Shown here: in pieces, positions 23,647-44,781 of the stretch
How the letters are laid out: each line of letters begins with the position of its first letter
Numbering within the stretch: position 1 is the first letter of the stretch
Sequence record: OZ035765.1
DNA length: 45,062 nucleotides
Origin: Veterinaerplatzvirus T145P1
Reading direction: 5' to 3' (one strand)
Notes under the pieces: model-generated
Told to the model about the DNA's origin: nothing
The model's input: the letters and a program-made list of their open reading frames with translations, nothing else
Database searches by the model: none
Made by a program: the position numbers and the translations under genes

Positions 23647-24072
23647 ATGCACGTAATTACTGGTCAGATTCGACGCGCTCCATTCACTAAAGAAGGTCAT
23701 AATGCTAATGGTACCTGGAAAATGTTTGCGGTTGATTTGAGTGAGCGATACAAAGATAAAGATGGTCAGACTCAGTATAGTAACTATCGCGCAGTCTTCT
23801 TCGCGAAAGAGTCAATGTTAGATTGGTATAATGAAGCTTTTCAAGAGGGTAAAGTTGTTAGCGTTAGCGCAGAGACTCTTTCTGTTGATGTTAGAGATAA
23901 AGATGGCAAGACTTACGTTACTGTCAACATGAACAATCCTAGACTTGAGTTTAGTCAGCGCGGTGAAGGTGGCGTGCAGCAGCAACCTAGACAACAGCAA
24001 CAAGCACAACAGCAACAACAGAATCAACAGCCAAAACAGCAAAAGCAATTCGAAGATGATATTCCTTTCTAA
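23647..24072 (+). CDS. ssb: single-stranded DNA-binding protein
   Basis: OB-fold-like N-terminus, Gln-rich linker, C-terminal acidic tail ...FEDDIPF. Confidence 0.85.
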   Translation: MHVITGQIRRAPFTKEGHNANGTWKMFAVDLSERYKDKDGQTQYSNYRAVFFAKESMLDWYNEAFQEGKVVSVSAETLSVDVRDKDGKTYVTVNMNNPRLEFSQRGEGGVQQQPRQQQQAQQQQQNQQPKQQKQFEDDIPF

Positions 24073-30329: not shown

Positions 30330-30745
30330 AGATTACAGATAAAGAAGATTACATTGAGTTTTACCAGGGTCCGGTTAAGTCATGCCCTAAAGAGGATGAC
30401 GAACAAATCTTTTGCTCTGATTGGGTTAAGTATAACTACCCAGATATGGTATTTTTCCATTGCGTGAATGAGGGAAAGAAAACCATTGGTCAAGCAAGAA
30501 AAGACCAGGCTAAGGGGCTTCTAAAAGGCGTATCAGACTGTATGTTTCTTATTCCTGAATCACTTCGAGGTAAGTATCCTTTCGGAGCTATAGAGCTAAA
30601 GAGGGCTGGCAAAACTCAAGCAAGTCCAGTCAGCGAAGAACAGAAAGCATTCCTGAAAAGTGTAATGGAATCAGGCGGTTTCTCGGCAGTCGCCTACGGA
30701 CGTGAGGGTTTTCTTGCAGCATTCAAAGAAATGATTTCAAAATAG
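30326..30745 (+). CDS. VRR-NUC-like nuclease (putative)
   Basis: 139 aa; D...E-L-K type motif (DCMFLIP...AIELKR); ATGA overlap with helicase. Confidence 0.5.
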   Translation: MKITDKEDYIEFYQGPVKSCPKEDDEQIFCSDWVKYNYPDMVFFHCVNEGKKTIGQARKDQAKGLLKGVSDCMFLIPESLRGKYPFGAIELKRAGKTQASPVSEEQKAFLKSVMESGGFSAVAYGREGFLAAFKEMISK

Positions 30746-30785
30746 CACGAATTGCTAAAGACGATTTTAAAAGATGGGGTATAGT
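30743..30785 (+). promoter_or_regulatory. conserved promoter/operator module
   Basis: TAGCACGAATTGCTA, 22 bp, TATAGT, leader TACTCCATCGAAACGA. Confidence 0.5.
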
Positions 30786-30821
30786 TACTCCATCGAAACG
30801 AAACACAAAGAGAGTAATAAA

Positions 30822-35594: not shown

Positions 35595-37178
35595 TCACCC
35601 CAGCAATCTCGGATTAATGTAAACTTTATCACCAATCAGGCACGTATAGTTTTTCTCATCAAGCATTGGCAGTAAGTGATCTTTAATCTTCGTCATCACT
35701 CCAGCCTGAGCCTCGAACGGCTTAACCTTTCGCGCCGCTTCATACAATGAGCGAATGCCAACAACACCCTTACCGTTTTTACCCTGCTTGATCAGGATAT
35801 CAATCAGCTTATTCATCTCGGCATTGTCGCCAGCGTGACCAGCCGCGTTGGCAGATGACAAATAAGTCTTGCTAAGCTCCTGGAACATGATTACAGCTTC
35901 TTGCATGGTATCAAGCTCAATCTCTCTGGATTTCTGTGGACTCCCACCGCTAGGGTTGAACCAGTTGCGCACTGTGTGAAGAACAGCAGCAATCCTGATA
36001 GCCTGCTTATCGAATTTACCCAGCGCGCCGCGCAACATTGTGTGGGAATACTTACCGCCGTCCGCAAGGTGCGGCTCCATTTCCTGACGTGCCCGGTTTA
36101 GATATTTCATCGCTGAGTTGCTAACCGTCAACTTTACTTCTTGCTCATTCATGATTTCGTGAACCAGGCGGAAGTAGTTAGCCTTAAGCTCACCATCAAT
36201 TGGCTCGTAAGTTGAGTTGCCATTCTCATCGACGAATACACGCTCGCCAAGGAATGATTTTTCACGCACAAGTAGAAAACGTTCCGACACACCAATACCA
36301 CGAGCACCAGCATTCATGATTGCGTTTATTGTCTCATCTTGCGCAATTACAGAGATGCATCCCATAGCGACGAAGCTCATGTTGTTTTCTGCGTTCGCAC
36401 GCGCAATGGACACGTTACCAGCATCCCACGCCTTGAGTACGAGCTCGCTGTTCGTTTTCTTTGAGCCATCACCATAGGTCATACCTAGCAGAGAGTTCAC
36501 GCTCGTTGCTTCATCAGAGATAACCGCGAAGTTGCCCTGGCGGTTGTTTATTCGCGCAAGACCTTCAGGTGTCGTATCTGATACTGGAAATACGATATCG
36601 CACATCTTTTCCAGCTTCTCCTCTAAATCCTCTTTCTCCTCAAAGAGAGACGCCATCTCTGATGGTGACTTTTCCTGCTTCATCTCTTTGGATAATGCAG
36701 ACAGCTTTGCCATAATCTTTTTACGCTCACGCTTTCGCACTTCATTAAGCCGCTCAGTCTCAGCAATCATTGGCGCAATAGAAAGCGAGTTAATTGCTGA
36801 TTTACCTGTGGATGGTGGCTGACTGGTTACTACGTATAGAGAGGTCGGTTGCTGGGTTCCGTGATACTCTACTGTAAAACGTCCCAGCATGGCGGCAGAA
36901 ATACACCCCAGAAAGTGCATATAAGCTGAAGACTCTGGAAATTGAACAGAACGGGCAATATTGGCTGACAGCTTACCAACAACATCAATGTCATTACCGA
37001 GTGAGATTACGGGATACTTGTCATTAGCCGCATCAATCTCAACTGGCGCTTTCCAGAATGATTGAGACTGACGATATCCATTGGCATTAATAGCGACGCG
37101 CAGGGGTGGGAGGTTGTCTGCGGCAGCAATTGCCATAACCTGTTCAACAGATAGCTTATCTTCGTTGAAATCAAACAT
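35595..37178 (-). CDS. P-loop NTPase of unknown function
   Basis: Walker A-like SQPPSTGKS and Walker B-like FAVISDEA separated by a charged coiled-coil insertion; own promoter module upstream. Confidence 0.6.
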   Translation of the reverse strand: MFDFNEDKLSVEQVMAIAAADNLPPLRVAINANGYRQSQSFWKAPVEIDAANDKYPVISLGNDIDVVGKLSANIARSVQFPESSAYMHFLGCISAAMLGRFTVEYHGTQQPTSLYVVTSQPPSTGKSAINSLSIAPMIAETERLNEVRKRERKKIMAKLSALSKEMKQEKSPSEMASLFEEKEDLEEKLEKMCDIVFPVSDTTPEGLARINNRQGNFAVISDEATSVNSLLGMTYGDGSKKTNSELVLKAWDAGNVSIARANAENNMSFVAMGCISVIAQDETINAIMNAGARGIGVSERFLLVREKSFLGERVFVDENGNSTYEPIDGELKANYFRLVHEIMNEQEVKLTVSNSAMKYLNRARQEMEPHLADGGKYSHTMLRGALGKFDKQAIRIAAVLHTVRNWFNPSGGSPQKSREIELDTMQEAVIMFQELSKTYLSSANAAGHAGDNAEMNKLIDILIKQGKNGKGVVGIRSLYEAARKVKPFEAQAGVMTKIKDHLLPMLDEKNYTCLIGDKVYINPRLLG

Positions 37179-37208
37179 TACTTCTCTCCGTGTTGTTTCT
37201 GAGCGGCC

Positions 37209-37251
37209 ATTATAACAACGACCGCTTATAAAGCATTATCAATTTGTGCTA
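37209..37251 (-). promoter_or_regulatory. conserved promoter/operator module (NTPase operon)
   Basis: Minus strand TAGCACAAATTGATA, 22 bp, TATAAT. Confidence 0.5.
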
Positions 37252-37418
37252 TTAATTGTTCTTAATCCACTTTAGACACATCCACAATCCAGCCCCATAG
37301 AATGCAATCTTGAGAACTTCAGCTAAGACAAGGATAATAAAGTATCCACCACCAAGTAAATCAATCATTTTTTAATCTCCATTTCCACAATTTCATAACT
37401 TATGTAATTATTTATCAT

Positions 37419-37604
37419 TCAAATAAGTGATTTTGGGTATGTCTTCATATGATTCTTGGCGGAATCTTCATCAAGATGTGCTGATATGTTGTGAAAATTG
37501 TATTCATAATCCATGCCAATTAGTATGTATATCTTATCGTGAGCATTAATGAAGTTATTTGATTTTATTTCCCCAAGCGACCAGCCCTTTCCTTTTCTAA
37601 TCAT
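37419..37604 (-). CDS. hypothetical protein
   Basis: 61 aa; ATGA overlap with the upstream gene. Confidence 0.4.
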   Translation of the reverse strand: MIRKGKGWSLGEIKSNNFINAHDKIYILIGMDYEYNFHNISAHLDEDSAKNHMKTYPKSLI

Positions 37605-37954
37605 TTGTATTGAGCCTCAAATCTGTAGTCGCCGCAGATTGTAATAAATCCAACCTCATCATCCCTTAAAAGCTGCCAAGCATTACCCTCTTTATCGTAA
37701 ATGCATCCAGCGCGCTGCCCAAGTCCAGCATGGAGATCTACTTGATATCGCTTACCTTCAGTAAAGTATTTTCGAATAGATGAGCGATGATTGACCTTTG
37801 TGCAATAAATTGTCTTTGTCTTAATATACTTTCCGCGCTCTTCCAGGTTAATCCATTTGCCATCTTTCTTGATTTGCTCTACACCATCTTTAACGCGAGA
37901 TTTGTAGAGTACGTTTTCGTTGCTGATCCAGTTTTTGGTAATCGTAGTAGTCAT
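37601..37954 (-). CDS. hypothetical protein
   Basis: 117 aa; promoter module on minus strand at 37996-38038. Confidence 0.45.
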   Translation of the reverse strand: MTTTITKNWISNENVLYKSRVKDGVEQIKKDGKWINLEERGKYIKTKTIYCTKVNHRSSIRKYFTEGKRYQVDLHAGLGQRAGCIYDKEGNAWQLLRDDEVGFITICGDYRFEAQYK

Positions 37955-37995
37955 TTCTTTTACCCTTCGTTGTTTCGTTTCGTTTCGATTGGATA

Positions 37996-38038
37996 ACTAT
38001 ACATTGAAAGCCCCGAAGGGCTTTAGCAATTAGTGCTG
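37996..38038 (-). promoter_or_regulatory. conserved promoter/operator module
   Basis: Minus strand TAGCACTAATTGCTA, 22 bp, TATAGT, leader TATCCAATCGAAACGAAACG. Confidence 0.5.
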
Positions 38039-38187
38039 TTTCGTGCTTTCTCTATCGCCTTGAGCATGATTTCGTGACTCTCAAGCAAATCCTCATTGAA
38101 CCAATCTCCGCAAGGCCAGCCCTTTCCGCTATACGCACTTATGACTTCCAGATCGAAATAATTTATCTCAGATGGCAGGAGCATCAT
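38023..38187 (-). CDS. hypothetical protein (54 aa)
   Basis: Translationally coupled; stop codon lies inside the operator palindrome. Confidence 0.3.
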   Translation of the reverse strand: MMLLPSEINYFDLEVISAYSGKGWPCGDWFNEDLLESHEIMLKAIEKARNSTNC

Positions 38188-38426
38188 TTCACCTCATCAA
38201 AAGTTGCAATCCCAGGAATAAACATCCCAACCTTCCAGCCTGCAATGGCAATCCATCCAGAATCGTGCTTGTGCGGTCGCTCAGCGCCATTAATCACCCA
38301 TTCGTTCGGGATTGTCTTGCCGTTAATGATTAGAGGCTCAGCGTCGTATACAGAGCCTTTAACGAATGGTGTTAAGGCTTTCTTGTCAGTGCTATTGATA
38401 ACGTTAGTGCAGATTATTTTAGTCAT
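38184..38426 (-). CDS. hypothetical protein
   Basis: 80 aa, GAGG RBS. Confidence 0.45.
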   Translation of the reverse strand: MTKIICTNVINSTDKKALTPFVKGSVYDAEPLIINGKTIPNEWVINGAERPHKHDSGWIAIAGWKVGMFIPGIATFDEVK

Positions 38427-38610
38427 TTACAACCTCGTACTCACCTTTATAAACAGCGACCTCTTCATTCACATTGTTTACAATCACTGCTAAACAAAGA
38501 GCACCCAAATATTTTACCACTTCGTACTCGCAGCCAAGCGTCAGACCATAGTCCTCACATGAACGTCCACTGCAATCTAAATCTTCGAATTTAACTAACT
38601 TAATTTTCAT
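38419..38610 (-). CDS. hypothetical protein
   Basis: 63 aa, GAGGA RBS. Confidence 0.45.
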   Translation of the reverse strand: MKIKLVKFEDLDCSGRSCEDYGLTLGCEYEVVKYLGALCLAVIVNNVNEEVAVYKGEYEVVND

Positions 38611-38620
38611 ATCTCAATCC

Positions 38621-38800
38621 TCAAATAAATGGCAAGCATTCGACGCAGCCAAGCCCATCACAGCACATGAATTCATCTTCTGACTGGAATTGCTTTGCTA
38701 AATCAATGTCTAGCCTTCCGCGCACCACAAGGTCGGTGTAATCTTCATTAAGCCCAATCAGTGCGCACTCGTTACGTAACTCATCTTTATTCTTTTTCAT
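38621..38800 (-). CDS. hypothetical Cys-rich protein (59 aa)
   Basis: C-terminal CCDGLGCVEC cluster; ATGA coupling with the upstream gene. Confidence 0.35.
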   Translation of the reverse strand: MKKNKDELRNECALIGLNEDYTDLVVRGRLDIDLAKQFQSEDEFMCCDGLGCVECLPFI

Positions 38801-38964
38801 TTATCCTGGCCTTTTAAATTATAACGCTCTCTCAGAACTTCAACCCATTCTTGCGCGTCATTCTCTCTCATGAAGAAACTTAAATTTGGGTACTTGTGAA
38901 ACCCTTTAAGTTCAACTATCCAATGACCACCTTCGTAACTATAACTAACTTTCTTCTCTGTCAT
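38797..38964 (-). CDS. hypothetical protein (55 aa)
   Basis: First gene of the minus-strand operon after a long structured leader. Confidence 0.35.
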   Translation of the reverse strand: MTEKKVSYSYEGGHWIVELKGFHKYPNLSFFMRENDAQEWVEVLRERYNLKGQDK

Positions 38965-39175
38965 TTTGTTACCTTTTGAGTTTTTTTATTATCGACATCT
39001 CTTCAACGTACTCGCTACAACTCGGGATTTTACTCCCGGCCCGGCATCCTAACAAAAGGACCCGATCGGCGCTTTGGTGGGTGAGGTAACGCTTCCTCAC
39101 ATTGCGCGGTAGTATTTACTCCTTTTGGTCTCTTTCGAGAGTGACTCAGAGTCTGCTACCGTGTCGATGAGATTA

Positions 39176-39219
39176 AGTATACGCATAGTTAGCCACACTG
39201 TCTTTAGCAAAAAGTGCTA
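39176..39219 (-). promoter_or_regulatory. conserved promoter/operator module (minus-strand small-gene operon)
   Basis: Minus strand TAGCACTTTTTGCTA, 23 bp, TATACT; followed by about 200 nt leader. Confidence 0.45.
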
Positions 39220-39232
39220 TTCGTTAGATTTA

Positions 39233-39321
39233 TGTATTGTTGCAGATATTGCAATGATTCACTTGATTATTGCACATACAGCAATATTGCTTCCGATGCA
39301 ATGATGTTTTTGATTGTTGCG
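39233..39321. repeat. iteron-like array of ATTG(N)TGCA / ATTGCAAT motifs
   Basis: At least six related motifs spaced 14-18 bp apart. Confidence 0.5.
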
Positions 39322-39508
39322 AAAAGTGAAATTAAGTGGTGAGTGAGTGAATGAAAGATGGATGGACTACCATACAAGTTGATTTTTACCAATCTATGGG
39401 AGCCTCACGGATATACGCGTATCCTCCGTATACTCAGTGTCGTCACAAAAGTTAGTGACCACTAACCTACGTTTTTACGCGATATATACACACGATATAC
39501 AATATAAT

Positions 39509-39574
39509 ATCTATATATATCAACCTTTTACTTTATTATTATTATTATTATTATATATATGTATACTGTGTATA
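39509..39574. repeat. AT-rich block, copy 2 with longer (ATT)n tract
   Basis: Same core as 20695-20751 with two to three extra ATT units. Confidence 0.7.
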
Positions 39575-39614
39575 CCGGTAATTGGTGAGATTATTGATAT
39601 GTTCCGCGCAGATA

Positions 39615-39632
39615 TTCTGACACCTGTCAGAA
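39615..39632. promoter_or_regulatory. perfect 8-bp-arm inverted repeat TTCTGACA-CC-TGTCAGAA
   Basis: Directly readable palindrome downstream of the AT-rich block and upstream of the 39850 gene. Confidence 0.45.
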
Positions 39633-39849
39633 ATGGATGGCATTGTAGGAATAAAAGGCACATATATAGGGAATGGCTTCAAAAATCTGTACACATCGGA
39701 TACGGCACATTTACAACCAGCAATGGAGGGGCCTCTGGAGGCAAGAAGCGTATCCATGATAAAATAGACGAAAATATACATTGACCGACACGTAAATAGA
39801 TGGCAATATAGCAGTCACTGAAACGAAGTAAAACAAACGAGGTATCAAC

Positions 39850-40398
39850 ATGCAGAAAGTAACACTAGGTGAAGTTATCCGTGAGATGGTGCGCAACGCG
39901 ATGGTGTCCGAGAGTGGTGAGTTTAAAGTTCCGGTTAGCCAGATATTCAAACTGGTTCGAGGCAAGGAATACCCTGAAATGGTGTATGACGAAGATACTA
40001 GTGAGATCCTCAACCTGGCAGATAGGGCGATGCCGGAACTAAAGAACTCATACATCTATAACACAGTGTCGAGAATGACAGAGCTTCGCGATGCTAATAA
40101 GCGAGCGAGATATAAGTTCATCTGGATTGATGATGACGGAGAGCAAACAAGGCCCGGTAGCTTCGACGGTGATGGCGCTGATAAATACCTGGTCATATAC
40201 ATTGAGAACGGCGCGCACTGGACTGGGAGTCGCGAAAAGAAAAAGCAGGAAGCGGAGAAAGAGGCGGCTATCATTGAAAAGTTCAAGTCTAGACTGCTCA
40301 AGCTGTCACCAAGTGTTGCTGGCTTGGAAGGTGAAGAACTTAAGGGCGCTGTTACAATGATTAATGCTTATCAGGAAATGATTAAGGAGACTAAGTAG
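39850..40398 (+). CDS. hypothetical protein
   Basis: 182 aa; first plus-strand gene after the divergent control region. Confidence 0.5.
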   Translation: MQKVTLGEVIREMVRNAMVSESGEFKVPVSQIFKLVRGKEYPEMVYDEDTSEILNLADRAMPELKNSYIYNTVSRMTELRDANKRARYKFIWIDDDGEQTRPGSFDGDGADKYLVIYIENGAHWTGSREKKKQEAEKEAAIIEKFKSRLLKLSPSVAGLEGEELKGAVTMINAYQEMIKETK

Positions 40399-40570: not shown

Positions 40571-40789
40571 ATGAGCAAGACAATCACGCTGCAATGCCTT
40601 AAGACAAATAACCCAGAGTTCTTAAAAGGTCACAAATATGTGGCAACCCTGGTGGATGGGAAAACATGGGCGGTTAAGGGTGGATTCCAGGATTACAAAT
40701 TCCCACTTGAGCACATACCTGGCGGAAACCTTGGTTTTGTTAGTGACTGCCGCTCAGTTAAGTTTGTTTTTGAGGTTGTAATGAAATAG
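40571..40789 (+). CDS. hypothetical protein
   Basis: 72 aa; promoter module at 40490-40533. Confidence 0.45.
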   Translation: MSKTITLQCLKTNNPEFLKGHKYVATLVDGKTWAVKGGFQDYKFPLEHIPGGNLGFVSDCRSVKFVFEVVMK

Positions 40790-40829
40790 CAATAATTGCT
40801 AAATCTTCCGCAAGGCCATTTGATATAGT
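40787..40829 (+). promoter_or_regulatory. conserved promoter/operator module
   Basis: TAGCAATAATTGCTA, 22 bp, TATAGT. Confidence 0.45.
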
Positions 40830-40870
40830 GGCCTTGTTGAAGCAAAACAACCAATCACGAGGTATAAATT

Positions 40871-41552: not shown

Positions 41553-41809
41553 AACGTTTAATGAAATGCATGACTATTATTGCGGCAATGATTGCTCTTA
41601 CTGGTTGCGAGAAGGCACCTGAGGTTCAGATTCAGTCAGGTGAATTCAATGTGGAGCGCCTATTCACAGTGGATGGATGTACCGCCTACCGATTCCGAGA
41701 TAGCTATAGAGCCATCTACTACACAAATTGCAATGGCAGTACGCAGAGTGAGTACAGGCACGGCAGGGCCATGAGACAAGAAACAGTTCAGACAGATCGC
41801 ACTAATTGA
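41549..41809 (+). CDS. hypothetical lipoprotein
   Basis: Signal peptide with lipobox LTGC; stop codon lies inside a promoter module. Confidence 0.45.
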   Translation: MKRLMKCMTIIAAMIALTGCEKAPEVQIQSGEFNVERLFTVDGCTAYRFRDSYRAIYYTNCNGSTQSEYRHGRAMRQETVQTDRTN

Positions 41810-41839
41810 TAAAAGGGGATCCATCCTGACTGGTATAAT
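41798..41839 (+). promoter_or_regulatory. conserved promoter/operator module (variant)
   Basis: CGCACTAATTGATA, 22 bp, TATAAT, with GGGGAT/ATCCCC hairpin enclosing the -10. Confidence 0.4.
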
Positions 41840-41992
41840 CCCCAGCATCAACCACATGAATGGAAGTTAAGTGACGATATACGAACATAAATTCAGTAGC
41901 AGGGGTATTGATATGCTCCTGCGCTATGTAGACGAAAAATACGCAAATCTCATGCTTAAGACGCATGGCGGCACAATAACGAGGATTGAGAT

Positions 41993-42322: not shown

Positions 42323-42323
42323 A

Positions 42324-42366
42324 TAGCACGAATTGCTAAACCCGCTCCTGCGGGTTTTGTTATAGT
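42324..42366 (+). promoter_or_regulatory. conserved promoter/operator module
   Basis: TAGCACGAATTGCTA, 22-bp spacer that is itself a terminator-like hairpin, TATAGT. Confidence 0.5.
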
Positions 42367-42702: not shown

Positions 42703-42836
42703 TTTACATCCACACGTACTACACTGGTAAGTTTAATAGCGTCAAACATGTCCGTGTTCACGATAACTACGAGAGCGCAAAAGCTCAATGGTTGGTTCTT
42801 GGTGGTGACATTAATTCATACAGAGTTGCTGAGTAG
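42699..42836 (+). CDS. hypothetical protein (45 aa)
   Basis: ATGA-coupled; stop TAG is the first triplet of the next module. Confidence 0.3.
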   Translation: MIYIHTYYTGKFNSVKHVRVHDNYESAKAQWLVLGGDINSYRVAE

Positions 42837-42876
42837 CACTAATTGCTAAAACAGTATTGGGGTAATTTGTTATAGT
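42834..42876 (+). promoter_or_regulatory. conserved promoter/operator module
   Basis: TAGCACTAATTGCTA, 22 bp, TATAGT, leader TACCCCATCGAAACGAGAGAGG. Confidence 0.5.
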
Positions 42877-42906
42877 TACCCCATCGAAACGAGAGAGGAA
42901 TAAGAA

Positions 42907-44704: not shown

Positions 44705-44781
44705 GCTCGAGTGGCGAAAGTGGATATCGCAAGAGACTTCTAATCTCTAGATTGCTGGTTCGAATCCAGCCTCGAGCGCCA
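44705..44781 (+). tRNA. tRNA-Arg (anticodon UCU)
   Basis: Hand-folded cloverleaf: 7-bp acceptor GCTCGAG/CTCGAGC, D-arm GCGA/TCGC with GG loop, anticodon stem AGAGA/TCTCT with loop CTTCTAA, T-arm GCTGG-TTCGAAT-CCAGC, discriminator G, encoded CCA. Confidence 0.85.

Follow-up and report, generated by a model that had tools for sequence, protein, structure and literature searches.

Small coupled genes in the leftward arm of a T1/Rtp-like coliphage and their probable organization into two promoter-headed cassettes

Introduction

About half of a T1-like phage genome consists of small genes without known function. One group of them lies on the minus strand at positions 37419-38964 of the window analyzed here, a 45,062-nt stretch of DNA from Veterinaerplatzvirus T145P1 (OZ035765.1). 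An initial annotation, made from the letters of the DNA, read this locus as one string of seven overlapping genes with an internal promoter and a cysteine-rich, possibly metal-binding product, and took the proteins to be of the host-takeover or anti-defence kind. The locus raises the question of how these genes are organized and what sorts of protein they encode. The explanation that we favor, with a probability of roughly 0.6, is a promoter-proximal leftward accessory arm composed of two promoter-headed cassettes of coupled genes, the products of which are heterogeneous binding proteins.

Results

Gene organization and conservation

Comparison of the 2-kb region containing these genes showed 99.0% identity to Veterinaerplatzvirus T145P1 OZ035767 and 86-91% identity, over parts of its length, to phages ACG-M12 and Rtp. 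Like these relatives, which are siphoviruses, the window phage is a T1/Rtp-like coliphage of the Drexlerviridae, subfamily Braunvirinae. Its seven minus-strand open reading frames (ORFs), called A to G here (Table 1), have exactly the coordinates and the size range of 54-117 aa first given for them. They had been described as chained by overlaps, and four of the six junctions do overlap, but B/C and E/F are gaps of 10 nt and 68 nt, respectively. An ATGA is shared at the A/B, D/E, and F/G junctions (D/E reads TGATG if the second ATG is the start of E), and C and D overlap by 8 nt (ATGACTAA). All seven ORFs are preceded by a Shine-Dalgarno (SD)-like GAGG, AAGG, or GGAG motif 3-10 nt before the ATG. 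Together with the conservation and purifying selection described below, these overlaps and motifs bear out the view of the genes as real, closely packed, and translationally coupled.

The string is bounded upstream by an 885-nt stretch without a convincing ORF (38965-39850), and the small genes beyond this stretch run rightwards, so it is with this string that the leftward arm of the divergent control region begins. Downstream, a DUF3987 helicase gene provides a conserved anchor. Two further ORFs on the same strand were omitted from the initial annotation: H, between G and the helicase gene, and a start-codon-damaged ORF upstream of A.

Conservation was assessed by tblastn searches of 39 related loci retrieved via the helicase gene. 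F was found in every locus with a full-length helicase gene. For D the number of loci was 20 and for E 17, almost all from Braunvirinae; B was found in 13, and A, C, G, and H in one to three. Among 50,697 phage records, the numbers containing each gene were 9 (A), 98 (B), 9 (C), 136 (D), 123 (E), 797 (F), and 10 (G). PHROG families could be assigned to B-F. The comparison across relatives that the initial annotation had proposed therefore finds the ORFs conserved, and the objection that they might be conserved nowhere fails.

Pairwise ratios of nonsynonymous to synonymous substitution rates (dN/dS) were 0.07-0.24 for B, 0.04-0.20 for D, 0.01-0.07 for E, and 0.10-0.17 for F, compared with 0.01-0.04 for the helicase gene; E is the most constrained of the small genes. 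Judged by these sequence comparisons, B, D, E, and F are real genes under purifying selection. For A, C, and G, values of 0-0.41 came from one or two comparators with very few differences; all three keep intact frames, SD motifs, and couplings.

Repeated modules and the division into cassettes

An internal promoter module had been proposed at 37996-38038. The element is a genuine one, repeated throughout the genome, but it lacks canonical sigma-70 geometry. The pattern TTGCTA-N22-TATAGT has seven exact matches in the window, compared with 0.03 expected, and a looser scan revealed a longer unit consisting of aaATAGCACnnnTTGnTAAA, a 22-nt spacer, TATAGT or TATAAT, and then tac..CATCGAAACGA. The full 21-nt repeat occurs in 19 copies, all co-oriented with the next ORF; examples lie at 2116, 9294, 30742, 40786, 42323, and 42833 on the plus strand and at 39220, 38039, 37252, 27767, and 20595 on the minus strand. 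In 17 of these 19 copies the next ATG follows the -10-like position at a distance of 13-60 nt, and the CATCGAAACGA box often follows the hexamer. The left and right parts of the repeat form an imperfect palindrome, TAGCA-N5-TGCTA, centered near -42. No conserved hexamer was found at 17-nt spacing among the module copies, and a TGn extended -10 is present in four of the 19.

The internal copy (ACAGCACTAATTGCTAAAG, 38039-38019) differs at one position from the core consensus aaATAGCACnnnTTGnTAAAA, is co-oriented with F, and begins 85 nt before the F ATG; its 5′ part overlaps E, the last codons of which lie inside the repeat. Within the spacer of this module is a stem-loop with a UUCG tetraloop (38024-38007), the 5′ arm of which overlaps the E stop codon. 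Relatives have hairpins of other sequence at the same place (e.g., CGCA-AGGA-TGCG in Rtp), and the structure is likely to be a weak terminator or a 3′-end stabilizer for the genes before it. The genes do not form one operon but two cassettes, parted by a stem-loop and promoter module. Cassette 1 (A-B-C-D-E) would start at the 39220-39176 module, which lies 212 nt before the A ATG, and end at the UUCG stem-loop in the spacer of the next module. Cassette 2 (F-G, and probably H) would start at the internal module at 38039-37996, and a third unit, headed by the module at 37252-37209, would comprise the helicase gene onwards.

In phage TLS, 21-nt intergenic direct repeats with the consensus aaATAGCACnnnTTGnTAAAA have been described approximately 76 nt before start codons and oriented the way transcription runs (German, Kropinski, Misra et al. 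2024, PMC11447400). The same study found the repeat in T1, Rtp, and Rogue1, left its function as an open question, and named a stoperator, an enhancer site, or an UP element as candidate roles (PMC11447400). The 38039-38019 copy fits the TLS consensus. It differs from the TLS description in two respects: the TLS repeats are called intergenic, whereas this copy overlaps E codons, and the repeat in the window is linked to a TATAGT/TATAAT-like hexamer at a constant 22 nt, and also to the CATCGAAACGA box.

Two Tempevirinae phages, Bas10 and Bas11, also have this repeat-hexamer unit, in one case immediately upstream of Bas11 gp54. When gp54 was cloned "with its native promoter," the protein was detected in uninfected E. 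coli, and Bas11 escape mutations just upstream of gp54 lower its expression (PMC11578894). By analogy, we infer that the repeat unit is a host-polymerase promoter of unusual geometry and that it would be active in the window phage as well, with host RNA polymerase reading the 21-nt repeat aaATAGCACnnnTTGnTAAAA together with a -10-like hexamer 22 nt after TTGnTA. Two other assignments of the repeat were considered. A sigma-54 site (TAGCAC-N3-TTGCT, resembling TGGCAC-N5-TTGCW) was rejected, as the spacing is 2 nt short, the GG at -24 is AG, and the C of TTGC is variable. A palindromic class-II activator site (TAGCA-N5-TGCTA) is weakened by variation in the right half (TG[C/A/T]TA) while the partner G is invariant.

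Many module copies elsewhere in the window carry strong hairpins (40786-40850, 42833-42895, 30742-30805, 37252-37190, 41796-41860, and 42323-42366). An inverted repeat flanks the -10 hexamer at 40786, 42833, 30742, and 37252 (e.g., AAGGCCA...TGGCCTT, z = -6.4), and the copy at 42323 has a terminator-like stem-loop within its spacer (AACCCGC-TCCT-GCGGGTTTT). It seems that structure is kept in these hairpins while sequence changes.

Table 1. Features of the leftward arm (window positions)
Feature	Positions	Strand	Description
gp01-like ORF	38969-39115	-	ACG-M12 gp01 homologue, 85% over 48 aa
Gene A	38797-38964	-	55 aa, neutral charge, sporadic accessory gene
Gene B	38621-38800	-	59 aa, acidic (isoelectric point, pI, 4.3), phrog_9053, rtp74 orthologue
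Gene C	38419-38610	-	63 aa, acidic, phrog_14327, sporadic
Gene D	38184-38426	-	80 aa, phrog_4448, rtp73 orthologue
Gene E	38023-38187	-	54 aa, acidic, phrog_4548, rtp72 orthologue
Gene F	37601-37954	-	117 aa, basic (pI 9.3), phrog_2684, rtp69 / T1 gp07-like orthologue
Gene G	37419-37604	-	61 aa, rtp68 orthologue
ORF H	37252-37368	-	38 aa, hydrophobic (grand average of hydropathy 1.1)
DUF3987 helicase gene	35595-37178	-	E 6e-42; phrog_2373 "DNA helicase," T1 gp09-like
Module heading cassette 1	39176-39220	-	21-nt repeat ATAGCACTTTTTGCTAAAG, 23-nt spacer, TATACT
Internal module	37996-38039	-	21-nt repeat ACAGCACTAATTGCTAAAG (38039-38019), 22-nt spacer, TATAGT (38001-37996)
Stem-loop	38007-38024	-	AAAGCCC-UUCG-GGGCUUU, 7 bp, UUCG tetraloop, in internal-module spacer
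Leader box	37972-37989	-	ATCGAAACGA, then GAAAC x3 repeat; conserved, in F 5′ untranslated region
Helicase-gene module	37209-37252	-	ATAGCACAAATTGATAAT, 22-nt spacer, TATAAT

Mosaicism at the module joint

Orthologues of the genes are found in Rtp and ACG-M12 in the same order, on the same strand, and upstream of the helicase gene: B corresponds to rtp74/gp03, D to rtp73/gp05, E to rtp72/gp06, F to rtp69/gp08, G to rtp68, A to gp02, and C to gp04. Rtp rtp68-rtp74 and ACG-M12 gp02-gp08 are annotated as hypothetical only, with the T1 gp09-like "DNA helicase" next to them. The window lacks rtp70, rtp71, and rtp75, and it is a mosaic of both phages, with A and C like those of ACG-M12 and G like that of Rtp. 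At the nucleotide level, A-D differ from ACG-M12 by 0.5-3% and E and F by 15-28%; for G, the closest counterpart is that of Rtp.

A 246-bp insertion between E and the module, at approximately 38044-38050, is present in the closest sister genomes, OZ035786 and OZ035793 (locus L045, positions 1319-1570, in OZ035786). The insertion encodes an 83-aa protein, the 3′ end of which runs into the 21-nt repeat. E ends in ...ARNSTNC in the window and the 83-aa protein in ...INSTNR; from this match of the tails (...NSTN), the C-terminus of E in the window is a chimera left by deletion of the 83-aa gene. In relatives, the E/F junction holds none to two of at least six different cassettes, encoding rtp70-like, rtp71-like, 83-aa, 59-aa, 100-aa, and 222-227-aa proteins. 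This indel and these swaps suggest that the module is also a joint for gene gain and loss, with recombination at the repeats deduced from the breakpoints.

A similar arrangement has reportedly been described for T4-type phages, in the mobile promoter-early stem-loop (PeSL) regulatory cassettes of Arbiol et al. (2010), where small ORFs without known function are said to be flanked by a promoter-plus-stem-loop joint for gene swaps. The window likewise has a repeated promoter and stem-loop at a joint of gene insertion and deletion, as seen in the indel of the 83-aa gene and at the E/F hot spot; a different phage family and a different motif are involved.

Among the records retrieved, those labeled Campylobacter phage A110b and A13a (MG065688 and MG065679), with Campylobacter jejuni as host, carry this E. 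coli-type Drexlerviridae arm with 85-86% identity, and their host label looks doubtful.

F, a core protein with a predicted Gp54-like barrel

F is the most widespread of the small genes, and its 797 records span phages of Klebsiella, Escherichia, Shigella, Salmonella, and Citrobacter. It is a core gene present in essentially all of the Drexlerviridae, and at most one small gene separates it from the helicase gene in all 39 loci holding a full-length helicase gene. An AlphaFold2 model built from a 37-sequence alignment is all-beta, with a predicted local distance difference test (pLDDT) score of 80. In this model, F would comprise a variable N-terminal beta domain (approximately residues 1-44) and a conserved C-terminal six-stranded barrel (approximately residues 45-117) of the SH3/KOW/FeoA-like class. 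The predicted barrel resembles Gp54 of Bas11 (PDB 9AXB), sharing its six-stranded beta-barrel form.

Searches of Pfam, NCBIfam, and PDB sequences gave no significant profile match for F. A search with an F hidden Markov model (HMM) among 1.84 billion proteins yielded 26 clusters at 50% identity. One of the matches, P0272, is a chimera of the helicase N-terminus and the F C-terminus. The sole large match, P0273 (512 aa), is an FG-GAP-type repeat protein that looks like a low-complexity artefact and was set aside.

These properties raise the possibility that cassette 2 (F, perhaps with G and H) belongs to the replication module and that F is a nucleic-acid-binding or helicase-associated accessory factor of the DUF3987 helicase/primase block rather than a protein aimed at the host. 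The basic character of F (net charge +7), its place beside the helicase gene, its status as a core gene, and the many nucleic-acid binders within its barrel class are all consistent with such a role, as is a weak NCBIfam match to Sul7s, a binder of single-stranded DNA, that fell far short of the cutoff (E 0.017). However, F has its own promoter module, apart from that of the helicase gene, no nucleic-acid-binding family was significant in the profile searches, and the closest structure, Gp54, is a protein binder. We put this proposal at somewhat below an even chance.

Host-takeover and anti-defence functions

The CapRelSJ46 defence system is triggered by Gp54 of Bas11, also named JohannLBurckhardt (Zhang et al., Nature 2024, PMC11578894), and even close Gp54 homologues fail to activate it if they carry three substitutions (PMC11578894). 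Gp54 and F share the leftward arm upstream of the DUF3987 helicase gene, each behind a 21-nt-repeat module, and the arm of Bas10 and Bas11 holds both an F orthologue (bas10_0050, 38% identity) and Gp54 (bas10_0057, bas11_0054). The two proteins are otherwise dissimilar: Gp54 is an acidic, stand-alone protein of 66 aa, non-essential and restricted to some Tempevirinae, whereas F is basic, two-domain, and family-wide. A Gp54-family HMM built from 16 loci matched no window ORF at E <= 10. D and F had also been considered as sequence homologues of Gp54 on motifs picked out by eye (LTPxFxKG and GxxW), for which hhalign and a shuffle test gave no support.

The attribution of the genes to host takeover and anti-defence, made in the initial annotation, stands in part. 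In its favor, the syntenic Bas11/Bas10 arm does encode a non-essential protein bound by an immune sensor. On the other side, no known family is matched and the string is mixed, with F a core gene. Searches for known anti-defence, toxin, and host-takeover families (for example Ocr, Ard, Acr, Tad, Gad, and Dmd, as far as Pfam and PHROGs include them), as well as NCBIfam and PADLOC searches, found none, and all PHROG matches were to "unknown function" families.

In the strict form of this idea, all seven proteins would be early effectors, each neutralizing a host defence or housekeeping target. The genes are small and adjoin the divergent control region, no enzymatic domains were found, and A, C, and G are sporadic in distribution. 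Bas11 escape clones lacking gene 54 and its neighbors are viable, and the authors suggest that Gp54 may be an inhibitor of another defence (PMC11578894). Against this, the presence of F in 797 records with fixed helicase synteny, and a dN/dS of approximately 0.01 for E, like that of the helicase gene, are the pattern of core genes, and we found no expression-timing study of Drexlerviridae in the literature. The profile of F suits a conserved housekeeping or replication-associated role better than that of an anti-defence accessory. We consider it rather unlikely that all seven proteins are such effectors.

A joint reading would make the arm a reservoir of one rare six-stranded beta-barrel scaffold (the C-terminus of F, the 64-75-aa Gp54-like proteins, and possibly D), a host-protein binder recognized by CapRel-like sensors, with F or D of Rtp-like phages as a defence trigger or inhibitor and the 21-nt module as both promoter and the recombination joint by which such cassettes pass between phages; this appears improbable to us.

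Sporadic and lineage-specific genes

A comparably low probability attaches to the view that some of the ORFs, namely A, C, G, H, and the gp01-like one, are not functional genes but relics in decay or artefacts of annotation. It draws on a stop codon, TGA in place of GGA, that ends G short of the 79-aa rtp68 product of Rtp, which reads 18 codons further, on the loss of the ATG of the gp01-like ORF, on the occurrence of A, C, and G in only 9-10 phage records each, and on selection tests that rest on a handful of substitutions. It is opposed by the intact frames, SD motifs, and start/stop coupling of A, C, and G. In addition, A has a 65%-identical homologue in phage IMM-001 (of unrelated length), C has homologues with approximately 43% identity (dN/dS 0.36) as well as a PHROG family, and G is 85-93% identical across six differently named phages, without frame damage in its first 61 codons.

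As G stops early relative to rtp68, the G/H "intergenic" stretch (37368-37421) is former coding sequence. H, the C-terminal half of which is conserved in Rtp, is probably a small membrane peptide. In the gp01-like ORF, the ATG is ATA in both the window and the sister genome; a good SD motif lies 4 nt before the ATA, and the remaining GTG is 18 nt from it. It may be a leader ORF that is decaying or weakly translated after losing its start. The four cysteines of C are not conserved in its homologues.

For D, the structural model is beta-rich, at low confidence. E showed no similarity to anything known in profile and structure-sequence searches. More generally, none of the eight small proteins had a significant match in Pfam, NCBIfam, PADLOC, or PDB sequences; weak matches to DUF6150 (E 0.074), Sul7s (E 0.017), and a GH30 xylanase (E 0.09) fell far short of the cutoffs and were disregarded.

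B, an acidic protein with a conserved cysteine tail

B consists of an N-terminal helix region containing IGLNED, an acidic stretch, and a C-terminal CC-x4-C-x2-C-LPFI (tail ...FMCCDGLGCVECLPFI). The protein had been said to end in CCDGLGCVEC; the cysteine motif is real, but it is followed by four more residues, LPFI. The close B family comprises 87 proteins, mostly with at least 70% identity, and C12, C46, C47, C52, and C55 are present in all intact members; C12 is not conserved outside Braunvirinae. A motif scan of related loci from Tempevirinae and other subfamilies found proteins of 74-86 aa at the syntenic position, which share AGLN(K/R)E, an acidic run, and a C-terminal CxC-x5-CxxC-FPF or Cx3C-x5-CxxC-IPFW. 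Profile comparisons link the subfamilies weakly, with E-values of 0.004-0.09 in a small database. The conserved features are a hydrophobic-Pro-Phe/Trp end and two pairs of cysteines, all four of which are kept from Braunvirinae to Tempevirinae despite changes in spacing and neighboring residues.

Metal binding, as proposed initially, fits the four conserved cysteines, but no zinc-finger or zinc-ribbon profile or structure was matched, and a PDB profile search returned only chance GH30 xylanase matches. Like short Cys4 zinc knuckles and ribbons, B has the pairs C-x(0-3)-C and C-x2-C, 4-5 residues apart. It differs from zinc-finger families in that the first pair is CC in this phage and no family profile fits. 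On the conserved pattern, it is plausible that the C-terminus of B forms a small zinc knuckle presenting a C-terminal docking peptide.

The E. coli single-stranded-DNA-binding protein (SSB) has the tail ...DFDDDIPF, and recognition of SSB tails needs the free carboxylate of the terminal Phe. The window also contains an SSB-like ORF (23647-24072, plus strand; 141 aa) with a Gln-rich linker and a host-type tail, ...FEDDIPF. Among window ORFs with 30 aa or more, [LIFVM]-P-[FW] plus at most one residue forms the end of only two, namely B (...VECLPFI) and this phage SSB. Mimicry of the SSB tip by B, the acidic stretch and Leu/Ile-Pro-Phe end of which, shaped by the Cys knuckle, would dock into the SSB-tail pockets of host genome-maintenance proteins such as ExoI, RecQ, PriA, or chi to block or hijack them, is the least probable of the alternatives: Tempevirinae relatives of B do end in ...DFDPxCxRCFPF after an acidic run, and 13 of 79 family members end in ...CIPF, but the pattern match is post hoc, and most Braunvirinae members, B included, have an extra residue (LPFI) or an LPW end.

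Other features of the window

A 139-aa ORF with a GTG start on the plus strand (38074-38493) runs opposite C, D, and E in antisense; there is no evidence that it is a gene, and the composition of the coding strand most likely accounts for it. The 885-nt divergent region contains a perfect (TTA)7/(TAA)7 microsatellite at 39533-39554, and it matches the ends of the Rtp record, which suggests a pac or terminal region there. A tRNA gene (44705-44778, plus strand; Rfam, 66 bits) lies among the rightward small genes. An Rfam scan of 37150-39900 found no RNA family, with one sub-threshold match to ES003 (E 0.37), and a scan of the whole window found the tRNA only. A paper on the prophage small RNA svsR mentions Veterinaerplatzvirus, but gives no phage target.

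Discussion

The region is an ordinary phage accessory arm. Its genes already carry hypothetical-protein annotations in relatives, and none of them can be given a function. In the organization that we favor, the arm, which is non-structural, would run from the 885-nt divergent region toward the DUF3987 helicase gene, and early expression of its genes would be expected from their position adjoining the divergent control region. The products would be seven or eight non-enzymatic small proteins of several kinds, most likely acting by stoichiometric binding. Among them, F would most likely be an adaptor that binds protein or nucleic acid and is tied to the block of replication genes, and B a zinc-stabilized docking peptide for a host protein. 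D and E would be subfamily-wide genes under strong constraint, and A, C, and G sporadic cassette genes, won and lost by recombination at the modules.

Several results weigh against this account. In the internal module, TTGCTA and TATAGT are 22 nt apart rather than at the canonical sigma-70 spacing of 16-18 nt, and a consensus sigma-70 scan made no call there. With neither a -35 element at 16-18 nt nor such a call, recognition of the module by host polymerase is left unexplained, and the evidence for it is one plasmid experiment in another subfamily. The stem-loop at 38007-38024, which has a 3-U tail only, was not called in a terminator scan. Against Gp54, hhalign gave probabilities of 0.0-1.1% for all eight families, which makes the likeness of F to Gp54 a structural one only, and with the Gp54 HMM, D and the two halves of F scored no better than shuffled sequences. 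For B, metal-binding profiles gave no Pfam match at E <= 1 and no NCBIfam match, and adjacent cysteines (CC) are an unusual pair of zinc ligands. For A, C, and G, the divergent comparators are too few to test selection firmly, and a literature search found no time-course transcriptome for any of the Drexlerviridae.

The fixed 22-nt coupling of repeat and hexamer, taken together with the Bas11 promoter, the one known to be experimentally active among these phages, offers a hypothesis for transcription without a canonical -35 element in this family. The barrel predicted for F shares the otherwise almost unique fold of Gp54, which is the only arm protein with a known host partner, and B represents an acidic protein found across the family, the tail of which (Cys4-Leu/Ile/Phe-Pro-Phe/Trp) is conserved. 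These results overturn no current view; their useful outcomes are the two-cassette anatomy of the arm, the structural link between F and Gp54, and the Cys4 tail of B.

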